Source: an uncultured delta proteobacterium (GTDB taxonomy: Bacteria; Myxococcota_A; Polyangia; Polyangiales; Polyangiaceae). Taken from it: 64,000 bases of DNA. How positions within the stretch are numbered: the stretch's first letter is position 1; the number at the start of each line of letters is the position of its first letter. Below are positions 9,643 to 58,889 of this stretch, piece by piece. The notes beneath the pieces were generated by a model, which was not told the DNA's origin, ran no database searches, and saw only the letters and a program-made list of their open reading frames with translations. The stretch is taken from contig CAWKKR010000004.1 in the NCBI GenBank assembly GCA_963850305.1, positions 32,001 through 96,000 of the forward strand, in the 5' to 3' direction. The translations under genes and the position numbers were made by a program.

Positions 9643-9679
9643 GGATCCTCTGGGTTGGAGTGAGCGCTGCTATGCGTCG

Positions 9680-9695
9680 TGCAAGGCGCGTGCCC
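9680..9695 (-). promoter_or_regulatory. Putative sigma54 (-24/-12) promoter for the xfp operon
   Basis: Minus strand reads GGGCACG-CGCC-TTGCA, exact GG-N10-GC spacing, about 38 nt upstream of the xfp ATG. Confidence 0.6.
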
Positions 9696-9769
9696 TCGAG
9701 AGACCGCGCGTTCGCGGCTCTTGCAGGTCGGTCGTCCGCCAGCGGACTCGTCCTCGCACGAACCAAAAC

Positions 9770-9785
9770 GGGCATGGGAGATGCT
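9770..9785 (+). promoter_or_regulatory. Putative sigma54 promoter for the GH15 gene
   Basis: GGGCATG-GGAG-ATGCT, GG-N10-GC spacing. Confidence 0.4.
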
Positions 9786-9798
9786 TCGACGATGACCC

Positions 9799-11619
9799 AT
9801 GCAAGCTCAAACAACGACCCCATCCGACCAGTCGCCGCGCATGCCCGCTGCCGCGGCTTACGTGCAACCTCTCATCGAGGACCACGCGCTCATCGGCGAT
9901 CTGAACACCGCCGCGCTGGTCACTCGCGACGGCACGATCGATTTCATGTGTCTGCCGGACTTCGATTCCGACGCCTGTTTCACCGCGCTCCTCGGTACGC
10001 GCGAAAACGGTTACTGGAGGATCGCACCCACGTCGCCCGTGCGGAGGTCGCGCCGCCGCTATCGAGACGACACGCTCGTCCTCGAGAGCGAGTTCGACAC
10101 GGACGACGGCACCCTCCGGATCACGGATTTCATGCCGATCCGCGAGGCGGGATCGCCGCCGCGCGTCGTCCGTATCGTCGAGTGCACACGGGGCCAGGTG
10201 ACGGTGAGGAGCGACCTCGTACCCCGCTTCGCGAACGGCATGACGGTGCCGATGATCGGGCCGAGAGACGGCTCGGCGGCGGCGGTTGCCGGCCCCGACG
10301 CGCTCTACCTGCGGGTCGCCGGAGAACGAGCCCCGGCCTTCTCGCAGGAACTCGTCGTCAAGGCCGGCCAGAGCATTCCATTCGTGCTCACCTGGGCGAG
10401 GCCGTATGACCCGATCCCGAAGCGCCTGGACGCATCTTCGGCCCTCGGCGAGACGCAGGCTTACTGGGAAGACTGGGTTTCGAAGCTCGCGGCGCCCGCG
10501 AACTACCGTGACGCGGTGGTGCGCTCCCTCATCACGCTCAAGGCGTGCACTTTCGCCCCGTCGGGTGCGATCGTCGCCGCACCCACGTTCGGACTACCGG
10601 AAACCCTCGGCGGCGAGAGAAACTGGGACTACCGCTTCTGCTGGATCCGCGACGCGTCCCTCACGCTACGCGCCTTCATCAGGGCTGGCGCCAGGAAGGA
10701 GGCAGAACATTTCTACGACTGGCTGGTCGACGCGATCGCGGGCGCTCCGAGTCAGATGCAGATCATGTACGGCATCCGCGGCGAGCGCCGCCTGACGGAG
10801 GTGGAGCTCGGCTGGCTCACCGGATACCAGGGAGCGCGCCCGGTGCGGATCGGCAACGCGGCGTACGATCAGTTCCAGCTCGACGTGTACGGGGAGTTCG
10901 CGGCGGTACTGTACGACGGGACGCAGTTCTTCGGCGAGCTCGCACCGCGCGTCCGCAACGCGCTCAAGGTCGTCGCCATGGAGGTGGCGCGCGTATGGAA
11001 GACGAACGATCGCGGCATCTGGGAGGTCCGAGGACCCGAGCGCGCGTTCACCGCGTCGAAGGTTGCCGCGTGGGTGGCCGTGGATGTCTGGATCAAGGTC
11101 ATCGAGCAGCACCACCTCGATGAAAAGGTCGAGTCCTGGAAGGCGCTGCGGCAGGAGATCTTCGACGAGGTCTGCAAGTTCGGATACGACGCGGAGGGCC
11201 GGACATTCACGCAGTACTACGGCGGCAAGGGCCTCGACGCGAGCTTGCTCGTGATCCCGCTCGCGGGGTTCCTGCCGGCAAACGACCCGCGCGTCGTGGG
11301 CACGGTCGCGGCAATCGAACGCGAGCTCATGCCGAAGGGGCTCGTCCTCCGCTATAGAACGGAGGACACCGTCGACGGTCTCCTGGGCGAGGAGGGCACG
11401 TTCCTTCCGTGCTCCTTCTGGCTCGCGAACACGTATCAGCTCATGGGGCGCACCGAGGACGCGCGGCGGCTATTCGAAAAGCTCGTCGCCCTCTCGAACG
11501 ACCTCGGTCTGCTCGCCGAGGAGTACCTCCCCGACGAGCACCGCCAGGTCGGCAACTTTCCGCAGGCGTTCAGCCACCTCGCCCTGGTGCAGAGCGCCTT
11601 CCAGATCGGTGGCACCTGA
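9799..11619 (+). CDS. Glycoside hydrolase family 15 (glucoamylase/trehalase-like); true start may be 9841
   Basis: IEDHALIGD, RNWDYRFCWIRD, QLDVYGE, GIWEVR, LLAEE, GNFPQAFSH. Confidence 0.93.
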   Translation: MQAQTTTPSDQSPRMPAAAAYVQPLIEDHALIGDLNTAALVTRDGTIDFMCLPDFDSDACFTALLGTRENGYWRIAPTSPVRRSRRRYRDDTLVLESEFDTDDGTLRITDFMPIREAGSPPRVVRIVECTRGQVTVRSDLVPRFANGMTVPMIGPRDGSAAAVAGPDALYLRVAGERAPAFSQELVVKAGQSIPFVLTWARPYDPIPKRLDASSALGETQAYWEDWVSKLAAPANYRDAVVRSLITLKACTFAPSGAIVAAPTFGLPETLGGERNWDYRFCWIRDASLTLRAFIRAGARKEAEHFYDWLVDAIAGAPSQMQIMYGIRGERRLTEVELGWLTGYQGARPVRIGNAAYDQFQLDVYGEFAAVLYDGTQFFGELAPRVRNALKVVAMEVARVWKTNDRGIWEVRGPERAFTASKVAAWVAVDVWIKVIEQHHLDEKVESWKALRQEIFDEVCKFGYDAEGRTFTQYYGGKGLDASLLVIPLAGFLPANDPRVVGTVAAIERELMPKGLVLRYRTEDTVDGLLGEEGTFLPCSFWLANTYQLMGRTEDARRLFEKLVALSNDLGLLAEEYLPDEHRQVGNFPQAFSHLALVQSAFQIGGT

Positions 11620-16555: not shown

Positions 16556-16881
16556 CGCCAGACGAGGAGGCCGCGTCGCATGAGCTCGGCGAAGAAGGGG
16601 AGCGCGTCGTCAATCGCTTCGGCGAAGGAGGCGCCTCGTTCGGCGGCCACGGCGCGGATCACTTCTTCGAGCGTGAGCTCGCCCCGGCATCGAAGCAGAA
16701 GGTCGGCCGCGCTGCCGTGGAGGGCGAGCGCGCGCTCCGGGAACACGAGGAAGTGCGCGTTCCTCAGGGCGTCGAAGCGCAGTCGGGCCTTGGGCGCGAG
16801 CGACGGCCGCTCGTGAAGCTTGGCGGATACGGTCCCCACCGAGACGACCCGCGCCGGCCGCGTGCCCCCCGAATCAGTCAC
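16552..16881 (-). CDS. pqqD: PqqA-binding chaperone
   Basis: LRFD...LVFPERALAL..SAADLL..C.G; GTGA overlaps with pqqC and pqqE; exact start uncertain. Confidence 0.85.
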   Translation of the reverse strand: MTDSGGTRPARVVSVGTVSAKLHERPSLAPKARLRFDALRNAHFLVFPERALALHGSAADLLLRCRGELTLEEVIRAVAAERGASFAEAIDDALPFFAELMRRGLLVWR

Positions 16882-17585
16882 CCGCCTCGTCCTGTCGTCG
16901 ACCAGGCGACGCAGTCGAGCAGGTGCCACAGGATCTCCGTCTTTCGAACGAGGGCGCGGACCGAGAGTTCCTGGGCTTCGTACGTCGTCGCGTGCGAGAG
17001 GACGTACGCCATCGCTTCCTCGGAGTCGCGCCGCGCCCGAGGGACGCGACTCCGGAAGTACTCGAGGGCCTTCCAATCGACGAACGGATAATGGCGTTCG
17101 AACGCGACGATCCGCGCCGACATGAGATCCGGCGCGAACAGCTCGGTCAAGGACGACGCGACCGCTTCGAGCAAGGTAGAGCTCCGGACGAACTCGACGT
17201 AAGCGTCGCACGCGAAGCGCACGCCGGGCAGGACGCCGCGCAGACTCGTGAGCTCGTCACGCGGGACGCCGATGGCTTCGCCGAGACGATGCCAGAGCTC
17301 GAGTCCACCGTTCGCGTCGTCGGTCCCGTCGTGGTCGACGATGCGGTGGAGCCAGGCCCGACGGAACGCGCTGTCCTCGGACTTGGAGAGGATGAGCGCG
17401 TCCTTGATGGGGATCCGCGTCTGATAATAGTAGCGGTTCATCACCCAGACCGAGAGCTCGCGGGCGGTCAGGTGCCCCTCGTGCATCTTCAGGTGGAACG
17501 GGTGTCGGTCGTGATAGCGCGACGTGCCCTCGTCGCGCATCCACTCGAAGAAGGCGTCGCGGGAGAGTGGCGGCTTTCCGGTCAT
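16878..17585 (-). CDS. pqqC: Pyrroloquinoline-quinone synthase
   Basis: YHDRHPFH, NRYYYQTRIPIKD, RIVDHDG, SSLTELFAP. Confidence 0.96.
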   Translation of the reverse strand: MTGKPPLSRDAFFEWMRDEGTSRYHDRHPFHLKMHEGHLTARELSVWVMNRYYYQTRIPIKDALILSKSEDSAFRRAWLHRIVDHDGTDDANGGLELWHRLGEAIGVPRDELTSLRGVLPGVRFACDAYVEFVRSSTLLEAVASSLTELFAPDLMSARIVAFERHYPFVDWKALEYFRSRVPRARRDSEEAMAYVLSHATTYEAQELSVRALVRKTEILWHLLDCVAWSTTGRGG

Positions 17586-17755
17586 GCCGCGGGAGGCGAG
17601 ACGACCGTGCTTCCCGCTTCACCGAGTGATGGGTGCGCGGGCGCGGGCTCCGGCTTCGCTTCGGTCGGGCGATCTGCGTCCCAATCCGGCTGATAAGAAC
17701 CGATCTCGGCGTTCATCGCGATCTCGCGAAAGCTCGGCTTCGTCCAGGTCTTCAT
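17582..17755 (-). CDS. pqqA: PQQ precursor peptide with a 36-aa C-terminal extension (57 aa)
   Basis: MKTWTKPSFREIAMNAEIGSYQPDWD...; W-x-x-P leader and E-x-x-x-Y core; GGAGG RBS; ATGA overlap with pqqC; below the ORF-track size cutoff. Confidence 0.85.
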   Translation of the reverse strand: MKTWTKPSFREIAMNAEIGSYQPDWDADRPTEAKPEPAPAHPSLGEAGSTVVSPPAA

Positions 17756-17828
17756 GGGGTGCGCCTCCGGCGTGGGGACCAGGGCAAGGCTAGCAGCTTT
17801 GACCGGCGATGATAACGTCGCCCGAGCC

Positions 17829-18743
17829 GTGCTTCGATTACGTATCCTCGGGGCTGCAGCAGGTGGCGGGTTTCCGCAATGGAACTGCGGCTGTTCGAAC
17901 TGCGCGCGCGTCCGCGCGGGAGAAACGGCTCTCGAACCTCGGACGCAAGATTCCGTGGCGGTGACGACCGACGGCGACTCGTGGGTGCTCCTGAACGCGT
18001 CGCCCGACGTGCTTCGTCAGATCCAGGCCAATCCCATGCTCTGGCCACGGTCGCGGCGCGACTCGCCCATCCGGGCGATCGTGTTGACGAACGGCGACGT
18101 CGATCACGTGCTCGGGCTCTTCGCGCTTCGCGAGTCCCAGCCACTCGCCGTATATGCGACGGCACGCGTCATCGCGGGGCTCGAGCAGAATGTGTTGCTG
18201 CGGACGCTTCGCCGATTTCCCGGTCACGTGGAGTTTCGAGCGCTCGCACCCGGACAGCCCGTGAACGTCGCGGGCGTCGATGGGTCGCCGACCGGTGTCG
18301 TGGTCGAGGCATTCTCCGCAGCGGGCAAGCCGCCCATTCACCTTGCGACCGCGTTCGAGCCGCACGCGGAAGACAACGTCGGACTGTTGCTCGGCCAAGA
18401 GGCGCGAGGGCGTGCGGCATACGTGACGGCAGCTCGTTCCGCGGACTCGATCGCGCGCGACGTCGCGGGCTCGCGCGTCCTGCTCTTCGACGGCACTTTC
18501 TTTGCGGACGACGAGCTCCCACGGCTCGGACTCGGAGCGGCCCGCGCCCACGACATGGCTCACGTGCCGATCGGCGGCGACGACGGGAGCCTACGTTTGC
18601 TCCGCGAGCTCGACGTGGGCCGCCGCGTCTACACGCACATCAACAACACGAATCCCATCCTCGATCGGGACGCGCCCGAGCGACGCGCCGTGGAAGCGGG
18701 CGGCTGGCAGGTCGCGCGCGACGGGATGGACATCGAGGTCTAG
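17829..18743 (+). CDS. pqqB: PQQ biosynthesis protein B (MBL fold)
   Basis: LGAAAGGGFPQWNCGCSNC, RTQDS, LNASPD, DHVLGL, HINNTNP. Confidence 0.95.
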   Translation: MLRLRILGAAAGGGFPQWNCGCSNCARVRAGETALEPRTQDSVAVTTDGDSWVLLNASPDVLRQIQANPMLWPRSRRDSPIRAIVLTNGDVDHVLGLFALRESQPLAVYATARVIAGLEQNVLLRTLRRFPGHVEFRALAPGQPVNVAGVDGSPTGVVVEAFSAAGKPPIHLATAFEPHAEDNVGLLLGQEARGRAAYVTAARSADSIARDVAGSRVLLFDGTFFADDELPRLGLGAARAHDMAHVPIGGDDGSLRLLRELDVGRRVYTHINNTNPILDRDAPERRAVEAGGWQVARDGMDIEV

Positions 18744-22924: not shown

Positions 22925-23121
22925 GGAACGTGGCGAGAGTATCATACCCTCCTCGCACGGGAACGCACGACGACAATCTGCGCGCGTGTAGGTCTCTCCG
23001 GACGCCGCCGTGTGTCAGTGACGCTCGCGCGACCGGTCCTTGTCGGATGCCGGCGACGGTGGATAACATGATGCTGTCGCTCGTTGGCGCTTCTCAGTTT
23101 CACCTGAAAGGACCATCCACG

Positions 23122-25731
23122 ATGTCGAACATGTGGGCGCACCGGTTCGGTCTCATGGGCAAGGCCGCGATCGCGCTCCTCTGGCTCACCGGCTGCGGTA
23201 ATTCGCAATCCGTCAGCGGCGGCGAAAACCAGGGCCACCCCGATGGTGGCGCCGCGTGCAACCCGAGCTGCGGCGAAAACGCGACCTGTGTGAGCAACGC
23301 CTGCGTCTGCTCCGCCGGCTACACGGGCGACGGGGTGACCTGCACCGGGGCCGCATGCCCGGCTCTCGCCGTGACGAATGGCACTGTCAGCCTCGCGGGT
23401 AGCGGCACTTACGGCGACATCGCAACGTACTCGTGCAACAGCGGCTTCACGCTGAGTGGGAGCAGCACCCGCTCGTGTCAGGCGGACACGACGTGGAGCG
23501 GCACTGCTCCCACCTGCAACGCGAGCTCGGGGCCGTGTTCGACCGCACCGTGCGTCCACGGCACATGCACCGAGTCCGGCACGACGTACTCGTGTGCCTG
23601 TGACGCCGGCTTTGCCGGCACCAATTGCGACCAGGGCGACCGCGACGGCCAGGCGGTGGCGTGCTCGGATCCGGTGACTCTGGCGAACGGCACGATCGCT
23701 CCTGCAAGCGTGGCGCCGAACGAGAGCCTGACGTACGCGTGCAACGCGGGCTTCACGCTGAACGGTTCCGCGACGCGCACCTGCAACGCGGACGGAACGC
23801 TCACGGGCACTGCGCCCACCTGCACCGCCGTGTCGTGCAGCGCGACCGCACCGACGAATGGCAGCGTCGACGCGACGACCACGACGTACGGCCTGACCGT
23901 CACGTATTCCTGTGACGCGGGCTATACACTTTCGGGCACCGCAACGCGCACTTGCAACGCGGACGGGACCCTGTCCGACGTCGCGCCGACCTGCATGCCG
24001 GTAACGTGCGCGGGTGTGGTGGCACCGGCGAACGGCGCGCTGTCTGCCACGTCCGCAACGCTCGGCAATGCGGTGACCTACACCTGCACCGCGGGCTACA
24101 CGCTCGCCGGCAACGCTTCGCGGACATGTCAGGCGGTCGGCACGTTCAGCGGTTCGGATCCGACGTGCGATCCGGTCGACTGCGGCGCGCTGACGGCCCC
24201 GGCTCACGGCGCCGTGGTTGCGGCGACGACGACGTTCGGCGCGACCGCGACGTACTCGTGCAACGCGAATTATGCGCTCGCTGGCGCCTCGACGCGCATG
24301 TGCCAGGCGGATACGGCTTGGTCCGGCGCCGCGCCGACGTGTGATCTGGTGACGACGGGATGCACGTCGGACCCGTGCAAGAATGGCGGGACGTGTTCGA
24401 CGTCGGGGGCGAGCGGATTCACGTGCGCGTGCGCGACGGGCTGGACCGGCAGCGACTGCGGTTCACCCGTGACGTGCTCCGGCGCGACGGCGCCGGCGAA
24501 CGGCGGCGTGAGCGCAAGCTCGGCGAACTACAACGGTACCGTCACTTACAGCTGCGACCCCGGCTACACGATGACCGGAACCACGACGCGCACCTGTCAG
24601 GCGAGCGGTGCATTCACCGGCACGGCTCCGACTTGCAAAGCAGTGGACTGCGGCGCGCTGACGGCGCCGCCCAACGGCGGCGTGACGACCCCGAACGGCA
24701 CGCTCTTCGGCGCGACCGCGACGTACACGTGCAGCACCGGCTTCGGGCTCAGTGGCACCGCAACTCGGACCTGCCAGGCGGCGGCCTCGTGGAGCGGCGC
24801 CGCTCCGACGTGCGTCGCGACGGCTCCGACCTACTGCGACGTCGTGTACGGCATGACGAACGGCGCCACGGATTACGGCACCTTCCACCTCTACAACAAC
24901 TCCATCATCGCGATCGACAAGCAGCCGACGATTGGACACAACACGCTCCTTCCAGAGTACGGGAACACGCCCACGTACACGACCATGCCGACGCCGTTCA
25001 CGACGGCGGCATATCCGTCCGGCTGGTTCCGGCTTCGCTACACGGCGAACGCGGCCGGAACGGCGCCCGCCGCGGGCCCGGTCTCCTTCATAGAGATGTA
25101 TGCGCCCGCGGACGTGTCGGGCCTCGCGCTCGCGCTGGGGTTGACCGTCCGCATCTCCGTGGACGCTTCGGCTGGTCTCCTGCAAACGACGACGACCGGC
25201 TGCGCCGGCGGTGCAGCGCGGTGCCTGGCCCTGGACGGCACGGGTTCGCCGCAGTTCCTTTCCGCCGCGAACCGCTGTCAGTCGCTCGCAACCGGTGTGC
25301 TCTCGGGCAATACCATCACGTGGGATGCTTGCAGCATCGCCGCGCCCGCGGGCACGACGGGCACGCCCTCCACCGCGCAGCTCACTTTCACGCCAGCGAT
25401 GTCGGTCGCCAAGGCGGCTCCGGCGGATCCAGGCTGCGCGAGAAACATGACCGTGTGGGGCGGGGTTGCTTGCACGGCGGGAGGTCTCCCCGGCTGCGGG
25501 GCTGCGGGCACACTGTCGACGGCGCCCATCGACACGGTGTGGGATGAAAACTTTCCGCCCACGACTCTCTCGTCGACGACGTACTCGACCGCAACGGCGA
25601 CGATCCCCGAGTTCATCATTCCCGACAGCGACGCGAACACTTACACGGGGGCGCGTGTGACCAACGCCGCCGTCGTCAAGGTCGAGTGCGGCACCGTCGC
25701 AAGCGGGAACCTCACGTGCGACGATCAGTGA
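23122..25731 (+). CDS. Lipoprotein with 3 EGF-like and 7 Sushi/CCP repeats and an unassigned C-terminal domain
   Basis: AAGGA RBS, lipobox LTGC; repeats C..P.NG...ATY.C..G[YF].L.G...R.C...W/.SG..P.C; EGF such as CTSDPCKNGGTC...CACATGWTGSDC. Confidence 0.88.
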   Translation: MSNMWAHRFGLMGKAAIALLWLTGCGNSQSVSGGENQGHPDGGAACNPSCGENATCVSNACVCSAGYTGDGVTCTGAACPALAVTNGTVSLAGSGTYGDIATYSCNSGFTLSGSSTRSCQADTTWSGTAPTCNASSGPCSTAPCVHGTCTESGTTYSCACDAGFAGTNCDQGDRDGQAVACSDPVTLANGTIAPASVAPNESLTYACNAGFTLNGSATRTCNADGTLTGTAPTCTAVSCSATAPTNGSVDATTTTYGLTVTYSCDAGYTLSGTATRTCNADGTLSDVAPTCMPVTCAGVVAPANGALSATSATLGNAVTYTCTAGYTLAGNASRTCQAVGTFSGSDPTCDPVDCGALTAPAHGAVVAATTTFGATATYSCNANYALAGASTRMCQADTAWSGAAPTCDLVTTGCTSDPCKNGGTCSTSGASGFTCACATGWTGSDCGSPVTCSGATAPANGGVSASSANYNGTVTYSCDPGYTMTGTTTRTCQASGAFTGTAPTCKAVDCGALTAPPNGGVTTPNGTLFGATATYTCSTGFGLSGTATRTCQAAASWSGAAPTCVATAPTYCDVVYGMTNGATDYGTFHLYNNSIIAIDKQPTIGHNTLLPEYGNTPTYTTMPTPFTTAAYPSGWFRLRYTANAAGTAPAAGPVSFIEMYAPADVSGLALALGLTVRISVDASAGLLQTTTTGCAGGAARCLALDGTGSPQFLSAANRCQSLATGVLSGNTITWDACSIAAPAGTTGTPSTAQLTFTPAMSVAKAAPADPGCARNMTVWGGVACTAGGLPGCGAAGTLSTAPIDTVWDENFPPTTLSSTTYSTATATIPEFIIPDSDANTYTGARVTNAAVVKVECGTVASGNLTCDDQ

Positions 25732-26464: not shown

Positions 26465-28258
26465 ATGCCTGATCATTCGGACGAGAACGCATCCACGCCC
26501 GCGGTCGCTCCGTCGATAGGGCAGATCACACCTCGCACCCTGCACGACTTCCGGCAAGAGCTCACGGTAGGCGAGGACGTCGTCAATCCAGCGACGTGGA
26601 CGGGCTCCATTCCAGCCGCCTTCGGGATCGCCCCTCGGGTACGGATCGGCGCAAACCGATGGCTCAACCTGCTCTGGCTGCTCCCCATCGGGTTCGTGAC
26701 CTTGATCGCGACAATCGCCGTGGCGAAAGGGCTCCGCGGGTTGCCGGCCATCCAGCAGTTCATTTTCCGACATCCAGGGGCCGGTTTCGCCACATCCTTC
26801 TCCACCGCGATGCCGGCATGGCTGCGAGTTCAGCACTTCCTGAACTTGTTTTTCATGATCTTCATCATCCGCTCCGGCCTGCAGATCCTGGCCGACCATC
26901 CCCGGCTCTACTGGACCCGACACTCGACACCCGGACGCGAGTGGTTCCGCATGCAGAAGCAGGTGCCGGACGTCCCGCTCTGGACGGCAAAGCAGGACTC
27001 CATCACCTTGCCGAGGCACATCGGTCTGCCGGGCCTCCGCCATTCGATCGGGCTGGCGCGCTGGTGGCACCTCGGCATCGACGTGCTCTGGCTCGCCAAC
27101 GGGATCGTCCTTTACGTACTGCTGTTTGCGACCGGAGAATGGCACCGTCTCGTCCCGACGAGCTGGCAGGTGTTCCCCGACGCCGCGTCGGTCCTGGTGC
27201 AGTACCTCTCTCTGCACTGGCCCACCGACAACGGCTGGGTTTCCTACAACGGACTGCAGAGCATCGCCTACTTCATCACCGTGTTCGTGGCCGCGCCGCT
27301 CGCGCTGGTGACCGGACTCGGGATGTCGCCCGCGCTCTCCACTCGGTTCAAGCGCCTGAGCAAGCCACTCAGCATACAGGTAGCGCGCTCGCTGCACTTC
27401 CTCGTCCTGTGCTGGTTTCTCTTCTTCATCGTCGTCCACGTCACGTTGGTCTTCACCACGGGCGCGCTTCGAAACCTGAACCATATCTACGCGGGCAGCG
27501 ACAGCAGCGACTGGGTCGGGCTCGGCCTGTTTGCGGCTTCGATGGCGGTGGTCGCGGTCGCCTGGGTCGCCGCGACCCCCGTGACCTTGCGACATCCGAA
27601 CTGGGTGCGGCGGATCGGTTTCGCCCTGATCGGTCCGGTGCAGCGCCTGTTCGAGCACGCGGATTCGAGACCCGGTGAATACACCGAGAAAGATATCTCG
27701 CCGTACTTCTGGCACAACGGGAAGTATCCCGATTCGGCCGAGTACCGGACCCTCTTCGACGGTCAGTTCGCGAACTATCGGCTCCAAGTCGGCGGGCTCG
27801 TCGAGAACCCGGTCGAGCTGAAGATGGACCAACTCCGCGCCCTGCCGCATCATGAACAGATCACCCAGCACTTCTGCATCCAGGGCTGGTCAGGCGTCGC
27901 GAAATGGGGCGGCGTCTCGATGCAAACCATCCTCGATCTGGTCAAGCCGAAGCCGGAGGCGAAGTGGGTGGTGTTCTATTCGCTCGGGGACGGCCCCGAC
28001 CAGGGCCCCTATTACGACGCGCACCCCATCGAGCAGATGAGTTACCGACTGACGATGCTGGCTTACGACATGAACGACCAGCCGCTGACGTACGGGCACG
28101 GAGCGCCGATTCGCCTGCGCAACGAGGTTCAGCTCGGCTTCAAGCAGGTGAAATGGATCGCCGGAATCGAGTTCGTCGCCCACTACGCCGGGATCGGCGG
28201 TGGGCAGGGCGGATACAACGAAGACCACGAGTTCTTCGGGTATCGACAGTCGATCTGA
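26465..28258 (+). CDS. Membrane cytochrome b domain fused to a sulfite-oxidase-family molybdopterin oxidoreductase
   Basis: TM His residues (QHFLN, RWWH, RSLHF, VVHV), YNGLQ; HFCIQGWS, HGAPIRL, GFKQVKWI. Confidence 0.88.
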   Translation: MPDHSDENASTPAVAPSIGQITPRTLHDFRQELTVGEDVVNPATWTGSIPAAFGIAPRVRIGANRWLNLLWLLPIGFVTLIATIAVAKGLRGLPAIQQFIFRHPGAGFATSFSTAMPAWLRVQHFLNLFFMIFIIRSGLQILADHPRLYWTRHSTPGREWFRMQKQVPDVPLWTAKQDSITLPRHIGLPGLRHSIGLARWWHLGIDVLWLANGIVLYVLLFATGEWHRLVPTSWQVFPDAASVLVQYLSLHWPTDNGWVSYNGLQSIAYFITVFVAAPLALVTGLGMSPALSTRFKRLSKPLSIQVARSLHFLVLCWFLFFIVVHVTLVFTTGALRNLNHIYAGSDSSDWVGLGLFAASMAVVAVAWVAATPVTLRHPNWVRRIGFALIGPVQRLFEHADSRPGEYTEKDISPYFWHNGKYPDSAEYRTLFDGQFANYRLQVGGLVENPVELKMDQLRALPHHEQITQHFCIQGWSGVAKWGGVSMQTILDLVKPKPEAKWVVFYSLGDGPDQGPYYDAHPIEQMSYRLTMLAYDMNDQPLTYGHGAPIRLRNEVQLGFKQVKWIAGIEFVAHYAGIGGGQGGYNEDHEFFGYRQSI

Positions 28259-28595: not shown

Positions 28596-31253
28596 TCAGG
28601 CTCCCTCCGCTTCCACGAGCTCCGAGACGTATGGACGAAAGTTGGCTTTCTCGGTCCCGCAATCTGGACAACGAAAGCTGTCGTCGAGCGCGTCGAAGGG
28701 CGTGCGCGCCTGGATTTCCGGCGTGCCCTTGGACTCGTCGTAGACGTAGTAGCAGCCCCGACAGATGAAGGTTCCTCGGCCGGGTCGAGGCGGGGTGGGC
28801 GCGGGTAAGTCGCCCGCCGACGCATCGAGATCCGGGACCGTGACTCGATCGCCGACGACGACCTTGCCGCCCGTGCGAGCGACGAGGTAGACCCCGAGAT
28901 CTTTGTGGCCGAACGTTTTTCGGAGCGAGCCGGGGATGTCCATGTCCCGCTCGGCGGTGATCGGGTTGACGTTGGTGGCCCCGCAGCGCCCGTTGCGACG
29001 GTCGACGCGAAAAAGGACGTCGCCGAACAGGATGTCGCTGCCGACCCAATCGAATTCCTCCCAGGGTCGCACTCCATCGATGTAGAAGTTCGCCCGAAAG
29101 CGGTATGGGTCGATCTTGCGTCGCCACGCGGCCTCGAGGGTGCGGAGGGTCGCGAGGTTGATGCAGGAAATGACATTGTCCGGCTTGTCCATGAAGTGGC
29201 CATTCGGCAGGTGAACGAGCCTCGGCCCGCCGCGGGGTGACGGGATTTGCTCGGCGAAGAACAGCTCGACCGCGTCCCTGCCCTCCCGGCTCTGGAGATC
29301 GGCGCTGAGCAGAATCTCGGTGCGAGGGGTGTCACCATTGGACGCGCCGTTGGATCGCGACACGGTGAGCCGCATCGTCCGGGGATCGACGTGCGTTTGA
29401 ACGCGCGCCAGCTCCTCTTCCAGCATGAGCATCAGGAACAACCCCTTTTTCGCCCACCGGGGAGCGTCCGGGGCCATCGGCACCCCCGGCCGCGTCAGCG
29501 CAAACACTCGGTCGAACGGAAACGGTTTCCCCGCTTCGAGAACCACACCCCGCAAGGGCTCCGGGCTCAGACCTTTGATGGGGTAACGGCAAATCCCCCG
29601 GACGATGCGCATCGGCGTCGACTCCTCTCTCGTTCTCTTGTTCCGCGCCCGCAGCGAGATCGTGCGGATGGCGGGTTGCTGGCGCAGCAGAAGCGCCCGC
29701 CGTTTCGACTTTCTCAGGGGCGCGAGCGGCCGCCTCCGAGGCAAAGGCTCGTCGAGGAGTAGCTCGCGGATGAACTCGTGGTGATCGTCCAGTGTGTCGT
29801 CGACGGCATCGGAGAGACGCAAGATGCCCTGCTCGATCTGCTTGGGCGAGAGACCCGCGTAGCCGAGAAGGAGGCTCCGCCGCATCAGCGTCGAGGATGC
29901 CTGCTCGCACACGCCGGCCGACCCGAGCGAATACACCCCGACTCGATGACGTCGCGCAAGCTCTTCGAGCCGCGGAGCCTCTGGGACACCGGCGGGAAGT
30001 TGCCAGAGCACGTGCAGCCCGCTCGCCTCGCCGCTCGTCTCGACGCGGCCGAAATGACGTCTGAGCGCGTTCAGGAGAGCGTCGCGGCTGTCTCTGTACT
30101 GCGCTCGACTTCGCATCAGGTGAGCCGCGTAGCTCCCGCCACGGATGAGCTCCGCGAGCGCCGCCTGATCGAGCCAGGGGCTCCCGCCGTTGACCAGCCT
30201 CTTCACGGCGCAGAGCCCGTCGACCAGGCTCGGCGGCGCGACGACGTAGCCGATCCGGAGGCCGGGGCCGAGGGTAGTCGAGAACGTGCCGAGATGGATC
30301 GTACAGTCGGGTGCCATGCCCGCCAGAGCCTGCAGCGGCGAGCCGTCGTAATGAAAGTCGCCGTCGTAGTCATCCTCGATCAGGTACGTGCCGTGCCGCC
30401 GTGCCCACGCGATGACCTCCCTGCGGCGTGCTGCGGACAGGGCATGGCCGGTCGGGTACTGGTGCGCTGGCGTCAGATACAGGAGCGCCGCGGGTTCGTT
30501 CGGGAGGCGGGACGTCATGAGTCCGTCTTCGTCGACGCGAACGCCCAGAAGACGTGCTCCCGTTGCTTCGAAAGCCAGCGACGCGCCCTCATAACACGGG
30601 TCTTCCACGACGACCGTGCGGTCCGGCGACAGGAACAGGCGCGCGATCAGGCTGAGCCCTTCCTGAATGCCGAGGACGATCAGGATCTGCTCGGGGTCGG
30701 CCACGATGCCGCGGCTCATCGAGACGTGCGCGGCGATCGCGGAGCGGAGTACGTACAGACCGCCGGGCGCTCCATGCTCGGAGAGCCCCGCCGCACCGCG
30801 ATACGAGAGGCAGCCTTGCAACAAGCGTCGCCAGGTCTTCTGGGGAAAGAGCTCGCGGTTCGGGCGTCCTGGGGCGAAATCGTAGAGCGTACGCTGTCGA
30901 TCCGCCTCGATGCGCTTCGGCGCGCGGAGGAATGTCGGTGCCGGCATCGACGTCGCGGCGGCGGGTAGGCCCGAAGTCCCCGCCGTGGCAACGACCGCAC
31001 TATGCCGGGGACCTAGCGTTGCAAAGAACCCCGATGCGGCTCGCGACTCCACCAGGCCCTCGTCCAGCAAGGTTTCGTAGGCGCGCACGACCGTGTTCCG
31101 ACTCAGGCTGAGCTGCTCCGAGAACTGACGCGAAGAGGGCAGGCGAGCTCCGGGTGGCACCCGACCTTGTCGGATCGCGTCTCGCAGCTCATCGGCGAGC
31201 TGCCGGGCGAGCGGTCGAGGCGACGAGCGATCGAGGCCAACCGGAATTCGCAT
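28596..31253 (-). CDS. MocR/GabR-family regulator fused to MOSC and rubredoxin domains
   Basis: GntR HTH (LPSSRQFSEQLSLSRNTVVRAY), AAT-fold (LTPAHQYPTG, IEDDYDGDF), MOSC (RYPIKGLS, FDRVFAL, RFRAN, RCGATNVNP), rubredoxin (CRGCYYVYD...CPDC). Confidence 0.92.
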   Translation of the reverse strand: MRIPVGLDRSSPRPLARQLADELRDAIRQGRVPPGARLPSSRQFSEQLSLSRNTVVRAYETLLDEGLVESRAASGFFATLGPRHSAVVATAGTSGLPAAATSMPAPTFLRAPKRIEADRQRTLYDFAPGRPNRELFPQKTWRRLLQGCLSYRGAAGLSEHGAPGGLYVLRSAIAAHVSMSRGIVADPEQILIVLGIQEGLSLIARLFLSPDRTVVVEDPCYEGASLAFEATGARLLGVRVDEDGLMTSRLPNEPAALLYLTPAHQYPTGHALSAARRREVIAWARRHGTYLIEDDYDGDFHYDGSPLQALAGMAPDCTIHLGTFSTTLGPGLRIGYVVAPPSLVDGLCAVKRLVNGGSPWLDQAALAELIRGGSYAAHLMRSRAQYRDSRDALLNALRRHFGRVETSGEASGLHVLWQLPAGVPEAPRLEELARRHRVGVYSLGSAGVCEQASSTLMRRSLLLGYAGLSPKQIEQGILRLSDAVDDTLDDHHEFIRELLLDEPLPRRRPLAPLRKSKRRALLLRQQPAIRTISLRARNKRTREESTPMRIVRGICRYPIKGLSPEPLRGVVLEAGKPFPFDRVFALTRPGVPMAPDAPRWAKKGLFLMLMLEEELARVQTHVDPRTMRLTVSRSNGASNGDTPRTEILLSADLQSREGRDAVELFFAEQIPSPRGGPRLVHLPNGHFMDKPDNVISCINLATLRTLEAAWRRKIDPYRFRANFYIDGVRPWEEFDWVGSDILFGDVLFRVDRRNGRCGATNVNPITAERDMDIPGSLRKTFGHKDLGVYLVARTGGKVVVGDRVTVPDLDASAGDLPAPTPPRPGRGTFICRGCYYVYDESKGTPEIQARTPFDALDDSFRCPDCGTEKANFRPYVSELVEAEGA

Positions 31254-31289: not shown

Positions 31290-32543
31290 TCAGTTGCGGA
31301 CGCTCACCTTCATCCCCTTGTTCTCCGGCAAGTACGGGCTGTAAGGGTTCGGCACGATCGGCTGGCTGCGGTAGACGACCTGGAACTGGCCGTCCCCGCG
31401 AATCTCGCCGATCATGACCGGCTTGGTCAGGTGGTGATTCGCGTTCATCGTGACCGTGTATCCGGTGGGTGACACGACCGTTTGTCCGATCATGGCCTTT
31501 CGGACGGCGTCGACGTTGGTTGTCCCGGCCTTCTTCACCGCCTGGGCCCACATGTTGAAGAGGAGATAGGCCGATTCCATCGGGTCGTTCGTCACGGCCT
31601 TCGGGTCGTGGATGTAGGCGTGCCAGTGGTCGACGAAGACCTTGTTTTCCGGTGTCTTCAGCGATTCGAAGTAGCTCCAGGCCGCCATGTGCCCGACGAG
31701 GGGCTTCGTGTCGATTCCCTTGAGCTCCTCTTCCCCGACCGAGAACGCAATGACTGGAATGTCGGTGGCCTTGACGCCCTGGTTCGCCAGCTCCTTGTAG
31801 AAAGGAACATTCGCGTCGCCGTTGATGGTCGAGATCACCACGGTAGGCTTCCCGCTCGCGAATCGCTTGATCGCGCCGACCTCGGTCTGCCAGTCCGAAA
31901 AGGCGAACGGCGTGTAGTTCTCCCGGATGTCGGCGTCGGCAACGCCTCTGTATTTCAGATAGGCGCGGATGATCTTGTTGCTCGTACGCGGATAGACGTA
32001 GTCCGTCCCTTCGAGCACGAACCGCTTCATCCCGCCACCCCTCTCGCTCATCAACCAGTCGATGGCGGGGATCGCCTTGTTGTCGGGGACCGATCCTCCG
32101 TAGAAGATGTTGCGCGAGCTCTCTTCTCCCTCGTACTCGAGCGGATAGAACAGGAGGCCATTCAGCTCCTCGAAAACCGGCAGCACCGACTTTCTCGAAA
32201 CGGAGGTCCAGCATCCGAAGACGGCGGCCACCTTCTCGCGCTCGAGCAGGTCCCGCGCCTTTTCCGCGAACAGCGGCCAATTCGAAGCGGGGTCGACGAC
32301 GACGGGCACGATCTGCTTTCCTAGAAGACCTCCCTTCGCGTTGAGGTCGGCCACCTGCATCAACATGAAGTTCTTCAGAATCGTCTCGCTGATCGCCATC
32401 GTTCCGGAGAGCGAGTGCAAGATGCCGATCTTGATGGTGCCCTCCGCGCGGGCTACCCCCGTTCCGAAGGGGGAAAGGCCGACCAAAAGTATGGCGGCGA
32501 GCCCGGTGAGTGATTGAATCCAAAGACGGCGTGACTTGTTCAT
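31290..32543 (-). CDS. urtA: Urea/short-amide ABC substrate-binding protein
   Basis: KIGILHSLSGTMAISE, DPASNWPLFAEKA, FGCWTSVSRKSV, GTDYVYPR, STINGDAN; AAAGGA RBS; RR-containing signal peptide. Confidence 0.92.
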   Translation of the reverse strand: MNKSRRLWIQSLTGLAAILLVGLSPFGTGVARAEGTIKIGILHSLSGTMAISETILKNFMLMQVADLNAKGGLLGKQIVPVVVDPASNWPLFAEKARDLLEREKVAAVFGCWTSVSRKSVLPVFEELNGLLFYPLEYEGEESSRNIFYGGSVPDNKAIPAIDWLMSERGGGMKRFVLEGTDYVYPRTSNKIIRAYLKYRGVADADIRENYTPFAFSDWQTEVGAIKRFASGKPTVVISTINGDANVPFYKELANQGVKATDIPVIAFSVGEEELKGIDTKPLVGHMAAWSYFESLKTPENKVFVDHWHAYIHDPKAVTNDPMESAYLLFNMWAQAVKKAGTTNVDAVRKAMIGQTVVSPTGYTVTMNANHHLTKPVMIGEIRGDGQFQVVYRSQPIVPNPYSPYLPENKGMKVSVRN

Positions 32544-32660
32544 CGGTGTTTCCTTTGCGAGTCTTCGACGTACGCTCAGCCGCGATGGCCTCACGCGCCG
32601 CTCTCGCGGTTGCTGAGCCCGATGACTCCGATGCTATCGAGCGCGCGCCTGCCTCACCGA

Positions 32661-32690
32661 GAGCCAACTCGGGAATATTTGTAGGAGCCA
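32661..32690 (-). promoter_or_regulatory. Candidate MocR-type operator: TGGCTC direct repeat, 24-nt period, AT-rich spacer
   Basis: GAGCCA at 32661-32666 and 32685-32690 around GAATATTTGTA, about 120 nt upstream of urtA. Confidence 0.4.
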
Positions 32691-32746
32691 GTCACCGCGA
32701 TCGCGCGACGAGCCGAAAAGAACCGATGTTTCGCGACCGCTTCGGT

Positions 32747-32827
32747 CTCGATCGGGGTGTCTGTTCCGTCACGGCGGAGCTCGAGGCCGGCTATGTCCAG
32801 TTCGAAGCCGTCGAACGCGTACCTAAT
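32747..32827 (-). pseudogene. N-terminal relic of an OmpR/CadC-type winged-helix regulator
   Basis: IRYAFDGFELDIAGLELRRDGTDTPIE, after which similarity stops. Confidence 0.5.
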
Positions 32828-34631: not shown

Positions 34632-36353
34632 ATGAGCTCCCTCGCCACGTCCGTGCCGCTCGGTCTCCGGGTCCTGCTCGGAGCCATCGCGCTCACGGCA
34701 TGCGGTCATGCACGCACCCCATCGCCTACGCTAGAGGCGAAGCCGGTAACGATTTCCATCTTCGCGACCAACGACGTGCACGGACAGCTCGACAGGCTGA
34801 GGTACCTCGGCGGATTCATCGACAACCTGCGAAAGACGCGCTCGAAAGACGGCGGGGTGCTCCTGGTGGATGCCGGGGACGTGTTTCAGGGAACCCTGGA
34901 GTCGAGCCTCGACGAGGGAGCGGCCGCGATCCGCGCCTACGATGCGATGGGCTACGCCGCGATGGCGCTCGGCAATCACGAATTCGACTTCGGACCGGTC
35001 GGGCCCGCATCGATCCCCGGTCCGGGGGAGGAGCCGCACGGAGCGCTCGAGAGGCGCATCGAGGAAGCGCACTTTCCCGTCCTCTCGGCGAATCTCGAGG
35101 ATTCATCCGGCAAGCTGCCACCGTGGAAGAACCTCGCCGCGTCTACCATCGTGACCGTAGCGGGTCTCAGGATCGGCATCATCGGGCTTCTCACCGAGAC
35201 GGCGCCCCAGGTCATCAAGCGCGCCAACTTCAGCGATCTCCACGTTTCGCCTCTGACGTTCGCCGCGGCTCGCGAGGCGGTGCTGCTCCGGCACGCGGGT
35301 GTGGACCTCGTGGTCGTGGTCGCGCACGCGGGCGGCGAGTGCCGGAAGTTCGGCGACCCGAACGACCTCTCGAGCTGCGACCCCGGGAGCGAAATCTTCC
35401 GGTTTGCGCGGGCCCTGCCGAAGGGCCTCGTGAACGTCATCGTGGGCGGCCACCGCAACGCGGCCGTCGCCCAGATCGTCGCGGGGATTCCAATCGTCCA
35501 CGCCGCGTCGAACCTGCTCGGCTTCTCGCGAGTCGACGTGTCGTTCGACGCGAAGACACGTCGCGTGATCCGCTTCGACGTGAAGGCACCGCACCCCGTC
35601 TGCACCGTCCCGGTCGAAGCCGGCTGCGCGCCGGGGGACTACGAGGGAGGGCCCGTGACCCCGGACGCGGCCGTCGGCGCAGCCGTCGCACCGGCGCTCG
35701 ACGCCGCGCGCGCTCTCAAGGAACGGAAGCTCGGCGTCAGGGTCCTCGCTCCGCTTTCGGCGGCGCGCAAGGAAGAGACCGCACTCGGAAATGCATTCGC
35801 CGACTCGATGCGCCGGGCCGTCCCGGGCGCCGATGTCGCGATCAACAACGCCGGAAGCCTGCGTGACACGCTACCCGCCGGCGAACTCACGTACGGCGAA
35901 CTCGCGCACGTGATGCCATTCGACAACCAGATGGCGCGAGTGACGGTCACGGGGGCCGAGCTGCGGGCGATCATCGGAGCGAACCTGACGGACGGAGAGC
36001 ATGGTCTGCTTTCGATATCGGGGGCCACCATCGACGCCCGATGTCGCGGGGGCCACCTCGACGTCGAGGTGAAGCATCCCGACGGCAGGGCGATCCTCGA
36101 TGACCAGCACTTGCTTCTGGTCGCGAGCGACTTCATGGCGACGGGCGGCGACGGCCTGTTCGCGGCGGCGCACGTTGCGCCAGAGCGCGCGCAACTCGAC
36201 TCGAAGACCACCGTCATCGCCGCCCTCGTCGCCGGACTCGAGCAGCACGCCACCCTCCGCCCCGACGATCCGACCCTCCTCGATCCGAAGCACCCGCGCA
36301 TGGGGTACTCCCGGCCGTTTCCGGTGCGGTGTGGACCCAGGTCCGTCAAATGA
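34632..36353 (+). CDS. Bifunctional metallophosphatase / 5'-nucleotidase lipoprotein
   Basis: Lipobox LTAC; NDVHG, DAGD.FQG, GNHEFD, GGH, NAGSLR, PFDN. Confidence 0.9.
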   Translation: MSSLATSVPLGLRVLLGAIALTACGHARTPSPTLEAKPVTISIFATNDVHGQLDRLRYLGGFIDNLRKTRSKDGGVLLVDAGDVFQGTLESSLDEGAAAIRAYDAMGYAAMALGNHEFDFGPVGPASIPGPGEEPHGALERRIEEAHFPVLSANLEDSSGKLPPWKNLAASTIVTVAGLRIGIIGLLTETAPQVIKRANFSDLHVSPLTFAAAREAVLLRHAGVDLVVVVAHAGGECRKFGDPNDLSSCDPGSEIFRFARALPKGLVNVIVGGHRNAAVAQIVAGIPIVHAASNLLGFSRVDVSFDAKTRRVIRFDVKAPHPVCTVPVEAGCAPGDYEGGPVTPDAAVGAAVAPALDAARALKERKLGVRVLAPLSAARKEETALGNAFADSMRRAVPGADVAINNAGSLRDTLPAGELTYGELAHVMPFDNQMARVTVTGAELRAIIGANLTDGEHGLLSISGATIDARCRGGHLDVEVKHPDGRAILDDQHLLLVASDFMATGGDGLFAAAHVAPERAQLDSKTTVIAALVAGLEQHATLRPDDPTLLDPKHPRMGYSRPFPVRCGPRSVK

Positions 36354-36714
36354 AGCGGTACCGGACCCCGATTAACTCATACGTCCGTCTCGCCCGCTGA
36401 TCGCAAGTGGCCAGGGTGGCGCCGGCGTGAGCCGCCGCAGCAGCGACGAGGCCGTCGTACGTGGCTCCGCCCGAAATGCCGGCCTCTGCCAGCCGGGACA
36501 CGAGTGCAGGGCACGACCGGGAAGGAAGCGAGAGCCATCCGTCCGGAAATCGGTTCGCGAGAAACGCGGCGACAATGTCGCTCGGGGCTCGATGGGGGGC
36601 CGGCAGCCGAGTGAGGACGGAATAGCATTCGAGGCCGCAGTGCGCGACGAGGCGCGCGCCATCATCGACGACGGTACGCGCGGCGGCGTGTCGTTCGTGC
36701 CAGCAACCGAACCC
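36346..36714 (-). pseudogene. PIN-domain (VapC-like) toxin lacking its N-terminus
   Basis: WHERH, ECYSVLTRLPAPHR, GGATYDGLVA, LATCDQRA; no start codon or first DTS motif. Confidence 0.7.
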
Positions 36715-36718
36715 GGGA

Positions 36719-37114
36719 TCAAATGAACCGCGCGCGTATGTCCGGAGTCGGGACGCGGCAGATGTCGCGTTTGCCGAACCACCTGTATCGATTCGCCGCG
36801 AACCACCGATAGAGCGCGTTCCGGACCGGCCGGGGAACGATGACGGCGGCGCAGATGAGCGGCCAGGCGCCGCGGAGACCCCTGGCGATCCGGAGGACCG
36901 CGGTGCTCTCCGTGAACGCCCGATCTCGCTCGACGAGCACGATGGTGCCGACATCGCTCGAGAGCCCGTGGCGGGCGCAGAGCGCCTGACCGGCGTCGGA
37001 CTGGAGCGACGCGAACTTGAACCGAGAGACCGGGTCGCGATCGATGATGAAGTTCACCGCACCGTTGCAGACGTTGCAGACGCCGTCGAAAAGCACGATG
37101 AACGGCTCGCTCAT
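36719..37114 (-). CDS. DCC-family thiol-disulfide oxidoreductase (DUF393)
   Basis: LFDGVCNVC, FASLQS, Y...A.NRY.WFG. Confidence 0.9.
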   Translation of the reverse strand: MSEPFIVLFDGVCNVCNGAVNFIIDRDPVSRFKFASLQSDAGQALCARHGLSSDVGTIVLVERDRAFTESTAVLRIARGLRGAWPLICAAVIVPRPVRNALYRWFAANRYRWFGKRDICRVPTPDIRARFI

Positions 37115-58744: not shown

Positions 58745-58889
58745 CCCCTCCCGACTCCCCCGGCTGCAATATTCCGGAGAGACGGAAAAGATCCGACTGT
58801 TCTCATGTCGAATCGACATCCCCGGGCCTGCCAGCGCCACCAAGTTCCCGTAAAATCACGCACCTCGAACACCCGGAGTTGTGGCGACG

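Follow-up and report, generated by a model that had tools for sequence, protein, structure and literature searches.

The window analysed here is a stretch of 64,000 nucleotides from an uncultured member of the Polyangiaceae, and its minus strand carries the two neighbouring genes that are the subject of this report. One encodes a MocR-type regulator joined in a single open reading frame to a MOSC molybdoenzyme and a rubredoxin; the other, which precedes it, encodes an orphan paralogue of the urea-binding protein UrtA. In Table 1, we give the coordinates of both genes and of the features within and before them. The original prediction, made from the letters alone, had described one uninterrupted frame of 885 amino acids (aa), and no internal stop occurs over 31253-28596. 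The parts that it named are found by Pfam in the same order, a GntR domain, an aminotransferase-fold domain, MOSC (aa 687-805) and Rubredoxin (aa 829-872). The codon that it assigned to the cysteine binding the molybdenum cofactor (28983-28985) is correct, as are its positions for the rubredoxin CxxC pairs (Cys codons at 28761-63, 28752-54, 28668-70 and 28659-61, minus strand). Two features are absent from it: a threonine at the position of the pyridoxal 5'-phosphate (PLP) lysine and, where the MOSC part begins, a conserved ATG preceded by a Shine-Dalgarno-like site.

Table 1. Features of the fusion gene, the UrtA paralogue and the region upstream, in window coordinates.
Feature	Position	Strand	Basis
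Predicted operator: two TGG-led direct repeats, 24 bp apart, A/T-rich spacer	32659..32690	minus	Expectation-maximisation motif
Predicted -10 box TAGCAT, 22 nt past the operator	32631..32636	minus	nAnnnT pattern
Orphan UrtA paralogue, periplasmic, 417 aa from ATG, no adjacent permease genes	31290..32543	minus	TIGR03407
Glu replacing urea-binding Gln144 of Prochlorococcus UrtA, YPLEYE motif	32136..32138	minus	71/73 paralogues
Long product: MocR-MOSC-rubredoxin fusion, 885 aa	28596..31253	minus	Single open reading frame, zero internal stops
GntR winged helix-turn-helix, aa 15-77	31023..31211	minus	PF00392, E 6e-14; alignable with GabR
Aminotransferase-fold sensor domain (Aminotran_1_2), aa 160-473	29835..30776	minus	PF00155
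Thr326 at the PLP Schiff-base Lys position	30276..30278	minus	Alignment with Lys of GabR GTFSK
Linker, basic and variable	29613..29783	minus	Second operator and -10 box in divergent relatives
Shine-Dalgarno-like site GAGAGGAG for the internal start	29622..29629	minus	Duplex energy -8.6
Predicted short product: MOSC-rubredoxin, 338 aa, from internal Met548 (ATG 29610-29612)	28596..29612	minus	
mARC-like MOSC_N and MOSC module, aa 548-808	28830..29612	minus	Structure model and Foldseek
Cys757, predicted Mo ligand	28983..28985	minus	120/120 proteins; aligned with mARC1 RC
Rubredoxin with both CxxC pairs, predicted to supply the Mo centre with electrons	28638..28769	minus	PF00301

The fusion and its partner gene

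The fusion is real and conserved. All four Pfam domains are present in 113 of the 120 best protein matches (the query is counted; the others are 54-73% identical), and these four-domain proteins come from Alphaproteobacteria and Myxococcota. A scan of GTDB genomes gives 143 relatives, from which 79 loci were retrieved, making 80 with the window. The carriers among these 79 are Myxococcota, Alphaproteobacteria and one Acidobacteriota bin, and the closest relatives are Polyangiaceae bins. The family is patchy, with 2/201 genomes of the window's class and 2/301 Alphaproteobacteria, the centre genome being counted in each. The regulator and the enzyme are fused in 75 of the 79 loci, and the remaining four have MOSC-rubredoxin alone. 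Over the last 52 linker codons, none of 76 fused loci has an in-frame stop, while the other two frames have stops in 30 and 14 of them; the 53 metagenome linkers are free of in-frame stops as well. Linker length is a multiple of three in 68 of the 69 cases that can be measured, with 17 different lengths (11 of the 80 loci lack the anchor), and frameshifts further upstream are seen in three loci (L019, L059 and L062). The four-domain relatives and the open linker frame together exclude a sequencing artefact or a chance read-through in a single genome. The architecture search proposed with the original prediction finds a conserved fusion, and homologues that are always separate genes, named there as speaking against it, did not turn up.

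The fusion and the orphan UrtA paralogue form a one-to-one pair. Of the 75 fused loci, 72 have a UrtA-like gene next to the fusion and three end at a contig edge, which supports the earlier proposal of a link to the upstream binding protein. The gene is divergent in 64 loci, and it lies upstream in tandem in 8 loci and in the window. We also searched metagenomes in reverse, using a DNA pattern specific to the paralogue with Glu in its pocket (described below). Of 120 such loci, the fusion is present in 65; the sequence around the other 55 stops too early on one side or both, and every locus with room on both sides has it. Besides the paralogue, the neighbourhoods of the GTDB and metagenome loci have no conserved neighbour. 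The loci are related by descent and the metagenome set overlaps the GTDB set in species, so these and the following counts are not independent trials.

Some loci carry additional genes. In four Myxococcales loci (L006:7311-8114, 9600-10004; L008:6192-7643; L011; L021:8532-9980), a Rieske ferredoxin lies between the binding protein and the fusion, joined in L008 and L021 by a 2Fe-2S ferredoxin-flavin reductase; neither of these two has the internal ATG. A second MOSC gene is found close by in L006 and L011. A ferredoxin gene joins the pair in, for example, L017, L020 and L054. In L073 (7991-9550), a DDE transposase separates the two divergent genes and does not overlap the urtA operator. The Glu-type binding protein occurs with urtBCDE-type genes in L017 (2647-11000), a Pseudomonadota bin placed in the Myxococcota clade, and in L033 (4140-9600).

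The paralogue passes the TIGR03407 cut-off (529.6 against 492.75 bits), and its best matches in the PDB are UrtA proteins. The protein described earlier as urea- or amide-binding is not an ordinary urea binder, since a canonical urtA-urtB-urease operon lies on a different contig of the same genome and the pocket Gln has become Glu. The paralogue and the genome's own UrtA are identical at 247 of 398 positions. Papers are cited here by PubMed Central accession. In Prochlorococcus UrtA, Gln144 hydrogen-bonds both urea nitrogens (PMC10392092); 71 of 73 paralogues have Glu at this position, and the other two are unread. Eight of the nine pocket positions named in that paper match the canonical UrtA of the genome. 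The window paralogue retains the Trp, Ser, Tyr, Glu, Tyr, Asn and Ser of the Prochlorococcus pocket, its Phe192 position is a Tyr as in the canonical UrtA, and the Ser274 motif is readable in 64 of 73 paralogues. Because the contacts to the carbonyl oxygen are retained, we infer a urea-like carbonyl ligand that is altered at one nitrogen. The paralogue resembles the UrtA of UrtABCDE systems in most pocket residues and differs in the Gln144 to Glu change, an altered hinge motif and a MocR-type operator, as well as in its context: it is an orphan in the window and in 70 of 72 loci, with urtBCDE-type genes adjacent in the other two.

Predicted operator, linker promoter and internal start

The operator motif was obtained by expectation maximisation on 73 upstream regions, the window site being part of the training set. 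It reads YGGnnCCAT..CATTT followed by YGGCTCTC, and the GG pairs of its two halves lie 24 bp from each other. MocR operators typically have TGG-led direct repeats at a distance of about two helical turns (PMC5320631). At 30.0 bits, the site before the paralogue is the best of about 12.5 million positions in its genome. A wider regulon in this genome was set aside as a reading: the other sites reach at most 16.6 bits, the score of the runner-up, and 25 sites have at least 11 bits. The stretch 32550-32750, earlier proposed for an electrophoretic mobility shift assay, contains this best site. The weakest training regions score -0.1, 0.6 and 7.5 bits; scores of at least 15 bits are reached by 67 of the 73 upstream regions from metagenomes. 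An nAnnnT pattern follows the motif at 21 nt in 41 and at 22 nt in 26 of 73 promoters; a strict sigma-70 scan calls no promoter at the window's -10 site. The second repeat stands beside the -35 position, which suggests that the fused regulator acts as an activator at the predicted operator. The gap between the paralogue and the fusion is 36 nt in the window, with no terminator-like site on that strand, and the two genes likely form one operon.

An ATG lies exactly nine codons ahead of a YPxKG motif in 78 of the 80 loci, L008 and L021 being those without it, and in all 53 metagenome loci that have the motif (one further locus lacks the motif). When Shine-Dalgarno strength is scored as duplex energy with a generic anti-Shine-Dalgarno sequence, these 78 sites have a mean of -6.2 kcal/mol against -3.0 at 837 other in-frame ATGs, and the metagenome set gives -6.3 against -3.1.

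We scanned the linkers with a matrix built from urtA promoters only, which contains no linker sequence. In the 64 divergent loci, the linker site ranks first of approximately 5,258 positions in 50 cases, in the top three in 62 and in the top five in all 64, and it ends about 63 nt ahead of the internal ATG. It is in the top three in none of nine tandem and none of four stand-alone loci. The metagenome set has the site ranked first in 47 of 53 loci, and its sole tandem locus is without it. Codon usage carries the same mark. In the 103 distinct divergent linkers that could be read out of 106, the Leu codon at the site is CTA in 95, compared with 1.7% elsewhere in the genes, GCT serves as the Ala codon in 84, compared with 5.1%, and a -10 pattern is found at +22 in 99. 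Such rare codons indicate a constraint that acts on the DNA. In tandem loci, where the urtA promoter is already able to drive the fusion, common codons are back at this site; the window's tandem linker has lost the operator and the -10 box and has retained the PAIR peptide. A sigma-54 promoter in the linker, judged by eye, was rejected on two grounds, a spacing unsuited to sigma-54 and the identity of the motif with the operator of urtA.

The frame has been kept open, so a long and a short product are both likely. On this pattern of conservation, we consider two products very likely for the divergent loci. They are likely, with less assurance, for the window, where the internal promoter is absent and the short product would depend on the Shine-Dalgarno-like site and the ATG. 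The internal start, the promoter inside divergent loci and the similar operators of unfused sister regulators (see below) together suggest that the bulk of the enzyme is produced separately and upon induction. It could also be that the fusion is an incidental read-through of the regulator into its target gene, leaving the enzyme tail of the long form idle. The internal promoter, Shine-Dalgarno site and ATG do resemble those of an intact downstream gene, and four enzyme genes stand alone, but the absence of stops in 76 and 53 linkers whose other frames have them makes this quite improbable; moreover, no locus was found in which regulator and enzyme are clean adjacent genes, the three broken loci being frameshifts.

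The stand-alone MOSC-rubredoxin genes (L005, L007, L042 and L068) begin at the same Met and come without regulator, operator or binding protein; the one in L007 adjoins AraC and LysR regulators. In the genomes of these four, a search with the fused regulator as query finds no close regulator, the best match having 36% identity. In a quick MOSC tree, from which 16 near-duplicates and roughly half the outgroup rows were omitted, the four genes are nested within the fused family, and the Myxococcota copies form one clade (support 99, one Pseudomonadota bin included) inside the alphaproteobacterial diversity.

The two halves of the fusion and their relatives

The regulator half has the marks of the MocR/GabR family, a GntR winged helix-turn-helix, a fold-type-I aminotransferase-like domain and, by prediction, TGG-led repeats near its gene, and its best PDB match is GabR (E-value 4e-55). 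The EDD, phosphate-cup and stacking motifs of the aminotransferase-fold domain are retained. The lysine that forms the internal aldimine is replaced in the window by Thr326, which also aligns with Lys302 of EnuR (PMC8739950). At this position, 120 proteins have K in 54, T in 54 and R in 8 cases, and the 67 loci read out of 80 have K 38, R 14, T 9, Q 3 and one each of E, N and H. With Thr in this place, the alignment makes covalent PLP unlikely in the window copy. In EnuR, the lysine is required for induction, and it is strictly kept in 278 EnuR proteins (PMC8739950). The fusion shares with GabR (B. subtilis), PdxR (B. clausii) and EnuR (R. pomeroyi) the winged-helix and aminotransferase-fold domains and the TGG-led direct repeats; unlike them, it has a C-terminal MOSC-rubredoxin, a variable PLP lysine, and an operator and promoter within its own coding sequence. 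Hydroxylamine reacts with PLP to form an oxime, and the lysine is not needed for this. The NCBIfam label for the protein is that of a PdxR-type regulator of vitamin B6 (NF052282, 405.5 bits for a cut-off of 320). We hold such a role to be very improbable, given that no B6 synthesis or salvage gene is among the conserved neighbours, that the hao-linked sister family passes NF052282 too, and that the window copy has lost the PLP lysine.

By its sequence, the regulator half is the sister of this hao-linked family of MocR proteins. In a quick tree with 45 rows, the 20 fused regulators have a support of 100, and they are joined with the hao clade, against eight other MocR proteins, also with a support of 100. 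The nearest unfused regulator among 251 Alphaproteobacteria is 44% identical and is divergent from an octahaem haoA-like gene, haoB, and genes for cytochrome c554, a NapC-type cytochrome and cytochrome P460. Two further sister regulators among 401 Pseudomonadota adjoin haoAB, as does the best plasmid match, on the R. pomeroyi megaplasmid. Sister homologues by name occur in Nitrosococcus halophilus, N. watsonii, Nitrosoglobus and Nitrosacidococcus. In N. oceani, a GntR gene lies between cytL and haoA (PMC3772326), and Noc0891 probably belongs to the family by its position in the table of that paper. The PLP lysine of the sister family is K in 109 of 120 proteins and R in one, with 10 unread. 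With the spacing relaxed, the best operator-like site in the 19-kb R. pomeroyi locus precedes haoA (17.5 bits). The best sites in genome G460 are before cycA and, facing the regulator, in the gap between haoA and the regulator; in G788 the best site is before the regulator, and G725 has none that is convincing. The hao-linked proteins (R. pomeroyi SPO_RS20830; Nitrosococcus) are 40-44% identical to the window regulator, with an operator-like site of the same spacing before the R. pomeroyi haoA, and they differ in being unfused, in keeping the lysine and in standing beside the oxidative haoAB genes. The family, which is found beside haoAB in non-nitrifiers and has homologues among gamma-ammonia oxidisers, is a candidate for the hydroxylamine-responsive regulator of hao; the literature searched holds no characterisation of it. 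Representative loci are L252:4944-11737 (G460), L267:4048-8929, L268:6758-11308 and L261:6169-10482 (R. pomeroyi NC_006569).

With enzyme and regulator in one chain, the fusion may be a trigger enzyme, in which the fused MOSC-rubredoxin serves as the sensor, its turnover or redox state switches DNA binding, and the short product provides the bulk activity. It would fit a frame held open in all 76 and all 53 linkers, the 17 in-frame linker lengths, a PLP lysine that is kept in unfused sisters (109/120) and variable after fusion (54/120), the two tandem loci without internal ATG, and a linker peptide that has outlasted the DNA motif in 6 of 10 tandem loci. Set against this are the similar operator-like sites at unfused sister regulators that have no enzyme at all, an aminotransferase domain that is still well conserved, and a linker that is long, variable and partly accounted for by promoter constraint on the DNA. 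We consider the sensor role doubtful, while giving it some weight; it can hold together with the import-and-reduce reading described below. A predicted complex of the sensor-domain dimer with the MOSC domain scores 0.29, the mark being 0.32.

For the enzyme half, the structure model of the 338-aa product (pLDDT 85) has human mARC1 as its best Foldseek match (E-value 2.6e-10), ahead of YiiM and YuaD, in addition to matches with rubredoxins. The mARC1 match has a TM score of 0.5 over the query, with the MOSC_N barrel packed against MOSC in the model. Pfam finds MOSC and not MOSC_N (PF03476) in the window protein, and PF03476 on some homologues. The cysteine expected to bind Mo is invariant (120/120), and the four rubredoxin cysteines, which make up the two CxxC pairs of the fold, are kept in 119, 120, 118 and 118 of 120 proteins. 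YcbX of E. coli has its electron carrier at the C-terminus (PMC10637980), where the fusion has a rubredoxin. Fold and Mo-ligating cysteine are common to the fusion, mARC1 and YcbX; the differences are the rubredoxin in place of a [2Fe-2S] ferredoxin or cytochrome b5, the fused regulator, and a sequence identity of about 15%. The available text of the MOSC review PMC10637980 has neither a regulator-fused nor a rubredoxin architecture, and rubredoxin has no mention in it. The nearest unfused MOSC genes (42-45% identity) stand beside clpB in six of seven loci, read from N-terminal sequences, and the seventh is unclear. This alphaproteobacterial MOSC gene (L253, L255-L260) is near clpB and DUF4167 in most loci, DUF4167 being confirmed by Pfam in one, and the clpB-linked gene occurs in 45/301 Alphaproteobacteria genomes at E 1e-40, two fusion carriers aside. 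The model and the invariant cysteine lend support to the N-O reductase role that had been proposed, and we find it quite likely that the enzyme reduces an N-O bond of a small imported compound.

We examined 50 of the 75 carrier genomes, picked for longer contigs and fewer near-duplicates. Urease is above cut-off in 44 of them, and in 48 when pieces are counted; the class backgrounds are 80/301 and 29/201. UrtB is present in 46 of the 50, and haoB in none of 49 carrier genomes, the control genome being positive. In the window's genome, the fusion is the only MOSC match, and moeA and moaC are present.

N-hydroxyurea is the leading candidate for the main substrate, with about even chances. Human mARC1 reduces it to urea (PMC11513889), and mARC also reduces hydroxylamines, and hydroxamic acids to amides (PMC10637980). 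One alternative is free hydroxylamine as both signal and substrate, reduced to ammonia, with the binding protein capturing hydroxylamine itself. That mARC accepts hydroxylamines, that the sister regulators adjoin haoAB and cytochrome P460 and that haoB is not found in carriers are in its favour, but the binding protein still has the Ser and Tyr by which urea's carbonyl oxygen is held, and these point to a carbonyl ligand, which makes the alternative unlikely. Less likely again, the ligand would be formo- or acetohydroxamate, short hydroxamic acids that the enzyme would turn into amides, and the module would live on them or protect urease against them. Hydroxamates are urease inhibitors, urease co-occurs with the fusion, mARC acts on hydroxamic acids, and the amide binder AmiC is structurally related to the paralogue. 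The pocket, however, is much nearer UrtA (E 1e-117 to 1e-84) than AmiC (E 1e-45), and no amidase is among the conserved neighbours.

A putative import-and-reduce module

We propose that the two genes form a module which imports N-hydroxyurea or a similar N-hydroxy compound and reduces it to urea for urease, a reading to which we give a probability of about one half. The UrtA paralogue would bind the urea-like ligand and pass it to a UrtBCDE permease encoded elsewhere. The long product would be the regulator, binding the 24-bp-spaced direct repeat beside the -35 position and activating upon an N-hydroxy signal, either hydroxylamine or the substrate itself. Most of the enzyme would be the short MOSC-rubredoxin from internal Met548, made in Alphaproteobacteria from a second activated promoter in the regulator's own linker, and in the tandem Myxococcota loci, the window included, from the operon mRNA. 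By analogy with mARC and YcbX, the rubredoxin would deliver electrons to the Cys-ligated Mo cofactor, where the N-O bond is cleaved, and urease would convert the product to ammonia. Urease also hydrolyses hydroxyurea and releases hydroxylamine, so the substrate would be tied to the signal. With a regulator derived from a clade adjacent to haoAB, the module may be viewed as the reductive, assimilatory counterpart of hydroxylamine oxidation.

Several observations weigh against this proposal. MOSC enzymes are promiscuous, broad N-reductases whose substrates cannot be read from structure (PMC10637980), and we found no natural soil source of hydroxyurea in the literature searched. Urease and urtB are genomically linked, so their two counts are not independent; the urease backgrounds were taken over whole classes, and the window's class includes a family in which 19 of 29 genomes are urease-positive. 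The kinship of the loci and the species shared by the two sets also reduce the weight of the counts. The window itself lacks the internal promoter (its linker site ranks 43), and two of nine tandem loci lack the internal ATG. Most loci have no dedicated electron-donor gene. In the window's genome, moaA is split into two overlapping frames (G000:C8:754527-755514), by either a sequencing indel or a real break. On the regulator side, no operator-like site precedes haoA in three of four hao loci, and a sister-clade member on a Jannaschia plasmid is not beside hao. That regulator (L262:7251-9509) faces an operon for a cupin, an FAD oxidoreductase and a sugar-type ABC transporter, with an operator-like site of 16.1 bits.

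A bolder form of the proposal, which we regard as unlikely though still worth stating, is a self-nesting sensor-enzyme. The regulator, derived from the control of hydroxylamine oxidation and having lost its PLP Schiff base, would sense the N-hydroxy substrate via the fused molybdoenzyme-rubredoxin and then induce the importer and, from the linker promoter, the free enzyme.

Two possible connections were rejected. A link to Dirammox has no basis in the available text of PMC13753816, which mentions mosC merely as an unstudied neighbour of dnfABC. The gene convergent with the fusion (26465-28258, plus strand), for a cytochrome b fused to an MsrP-like molybdopterin oxidoreductase, is not conserved beside it. 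Elsewhere in the window, divergent PqqC-like (minus) and PqqB-like (plus) genes lie near beta-propeller genes (16878-18743), a long secreted-looking protein has at least seven Sushi repeats and EGF-like repeats (22930-25731, plus), a small PIN-domain gene with a weak Pfam match is perhaps a VapC-type toxin (36346-36726, minus), and a large kinase-TPR protein extends past the window end (58881-64000, plus).

Relatives of each part of the module are known; their combination and the nested promoter seem not to have been described before. Fusions of a regulator and an enzyme, or trigger enzymes, include PutA, BirA and NadR, and in-frame genes with two starts include cheA and infB. The likeness is one chain for regulator and enzyme in the former and two products from one frame in the latter; the difference lies in the predicted target of the regulator, a promoter within its own coding sequence from which the enzyme half alone would be made. 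We know of no other case of this kind. A MocR-MOSC-rubredoxin protein is not described in the literature searched, which covered few subscription papers. The MocR regulon survey PMC5320631 has, in its available text, no urea, urt or molybdenum term and, in its available text and supplement, no urtA, hao or rubredoxin entry; it has one COG2258 MOSC row, as a regulon member.

The available data do not point to the physiological substrates of MOSC and mARC enzymes (PMC10637980). Here one binding protein and one operator are tied to an mARC-like enzyme, so the substrate could be found by a ligand screen with two small soluble proteins. Culturable hosts are Prosthecomicrobium hirschii, Bradyrhizobium sp. 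LTSP885, Methylobacterium, Ancylobacter, Terrihabitans and Zavarzinia. The control of haoAB clusters was described in 2013 as not understood (PMC3772326), and for these clusters the present analysis supplies a candidate operator and regulator family. The gene layout would be unusual, with a regulator that activates a promoter in its own frame and thereby releases its enzyme half, and the module points to a possible unrecognised sink for N-hydroxy nitrogen in soil. If the self-nesting form were true, it would be the first bacterial pathway living on nitrogen of the N-hydroxyurea type, would provide an mARC-like enzyme of bacteria with its first physiological substrate, and would put a name to the family of hydroxylamine-linked regulators in the Nitrosococcus and Ruegeria hao clusters.

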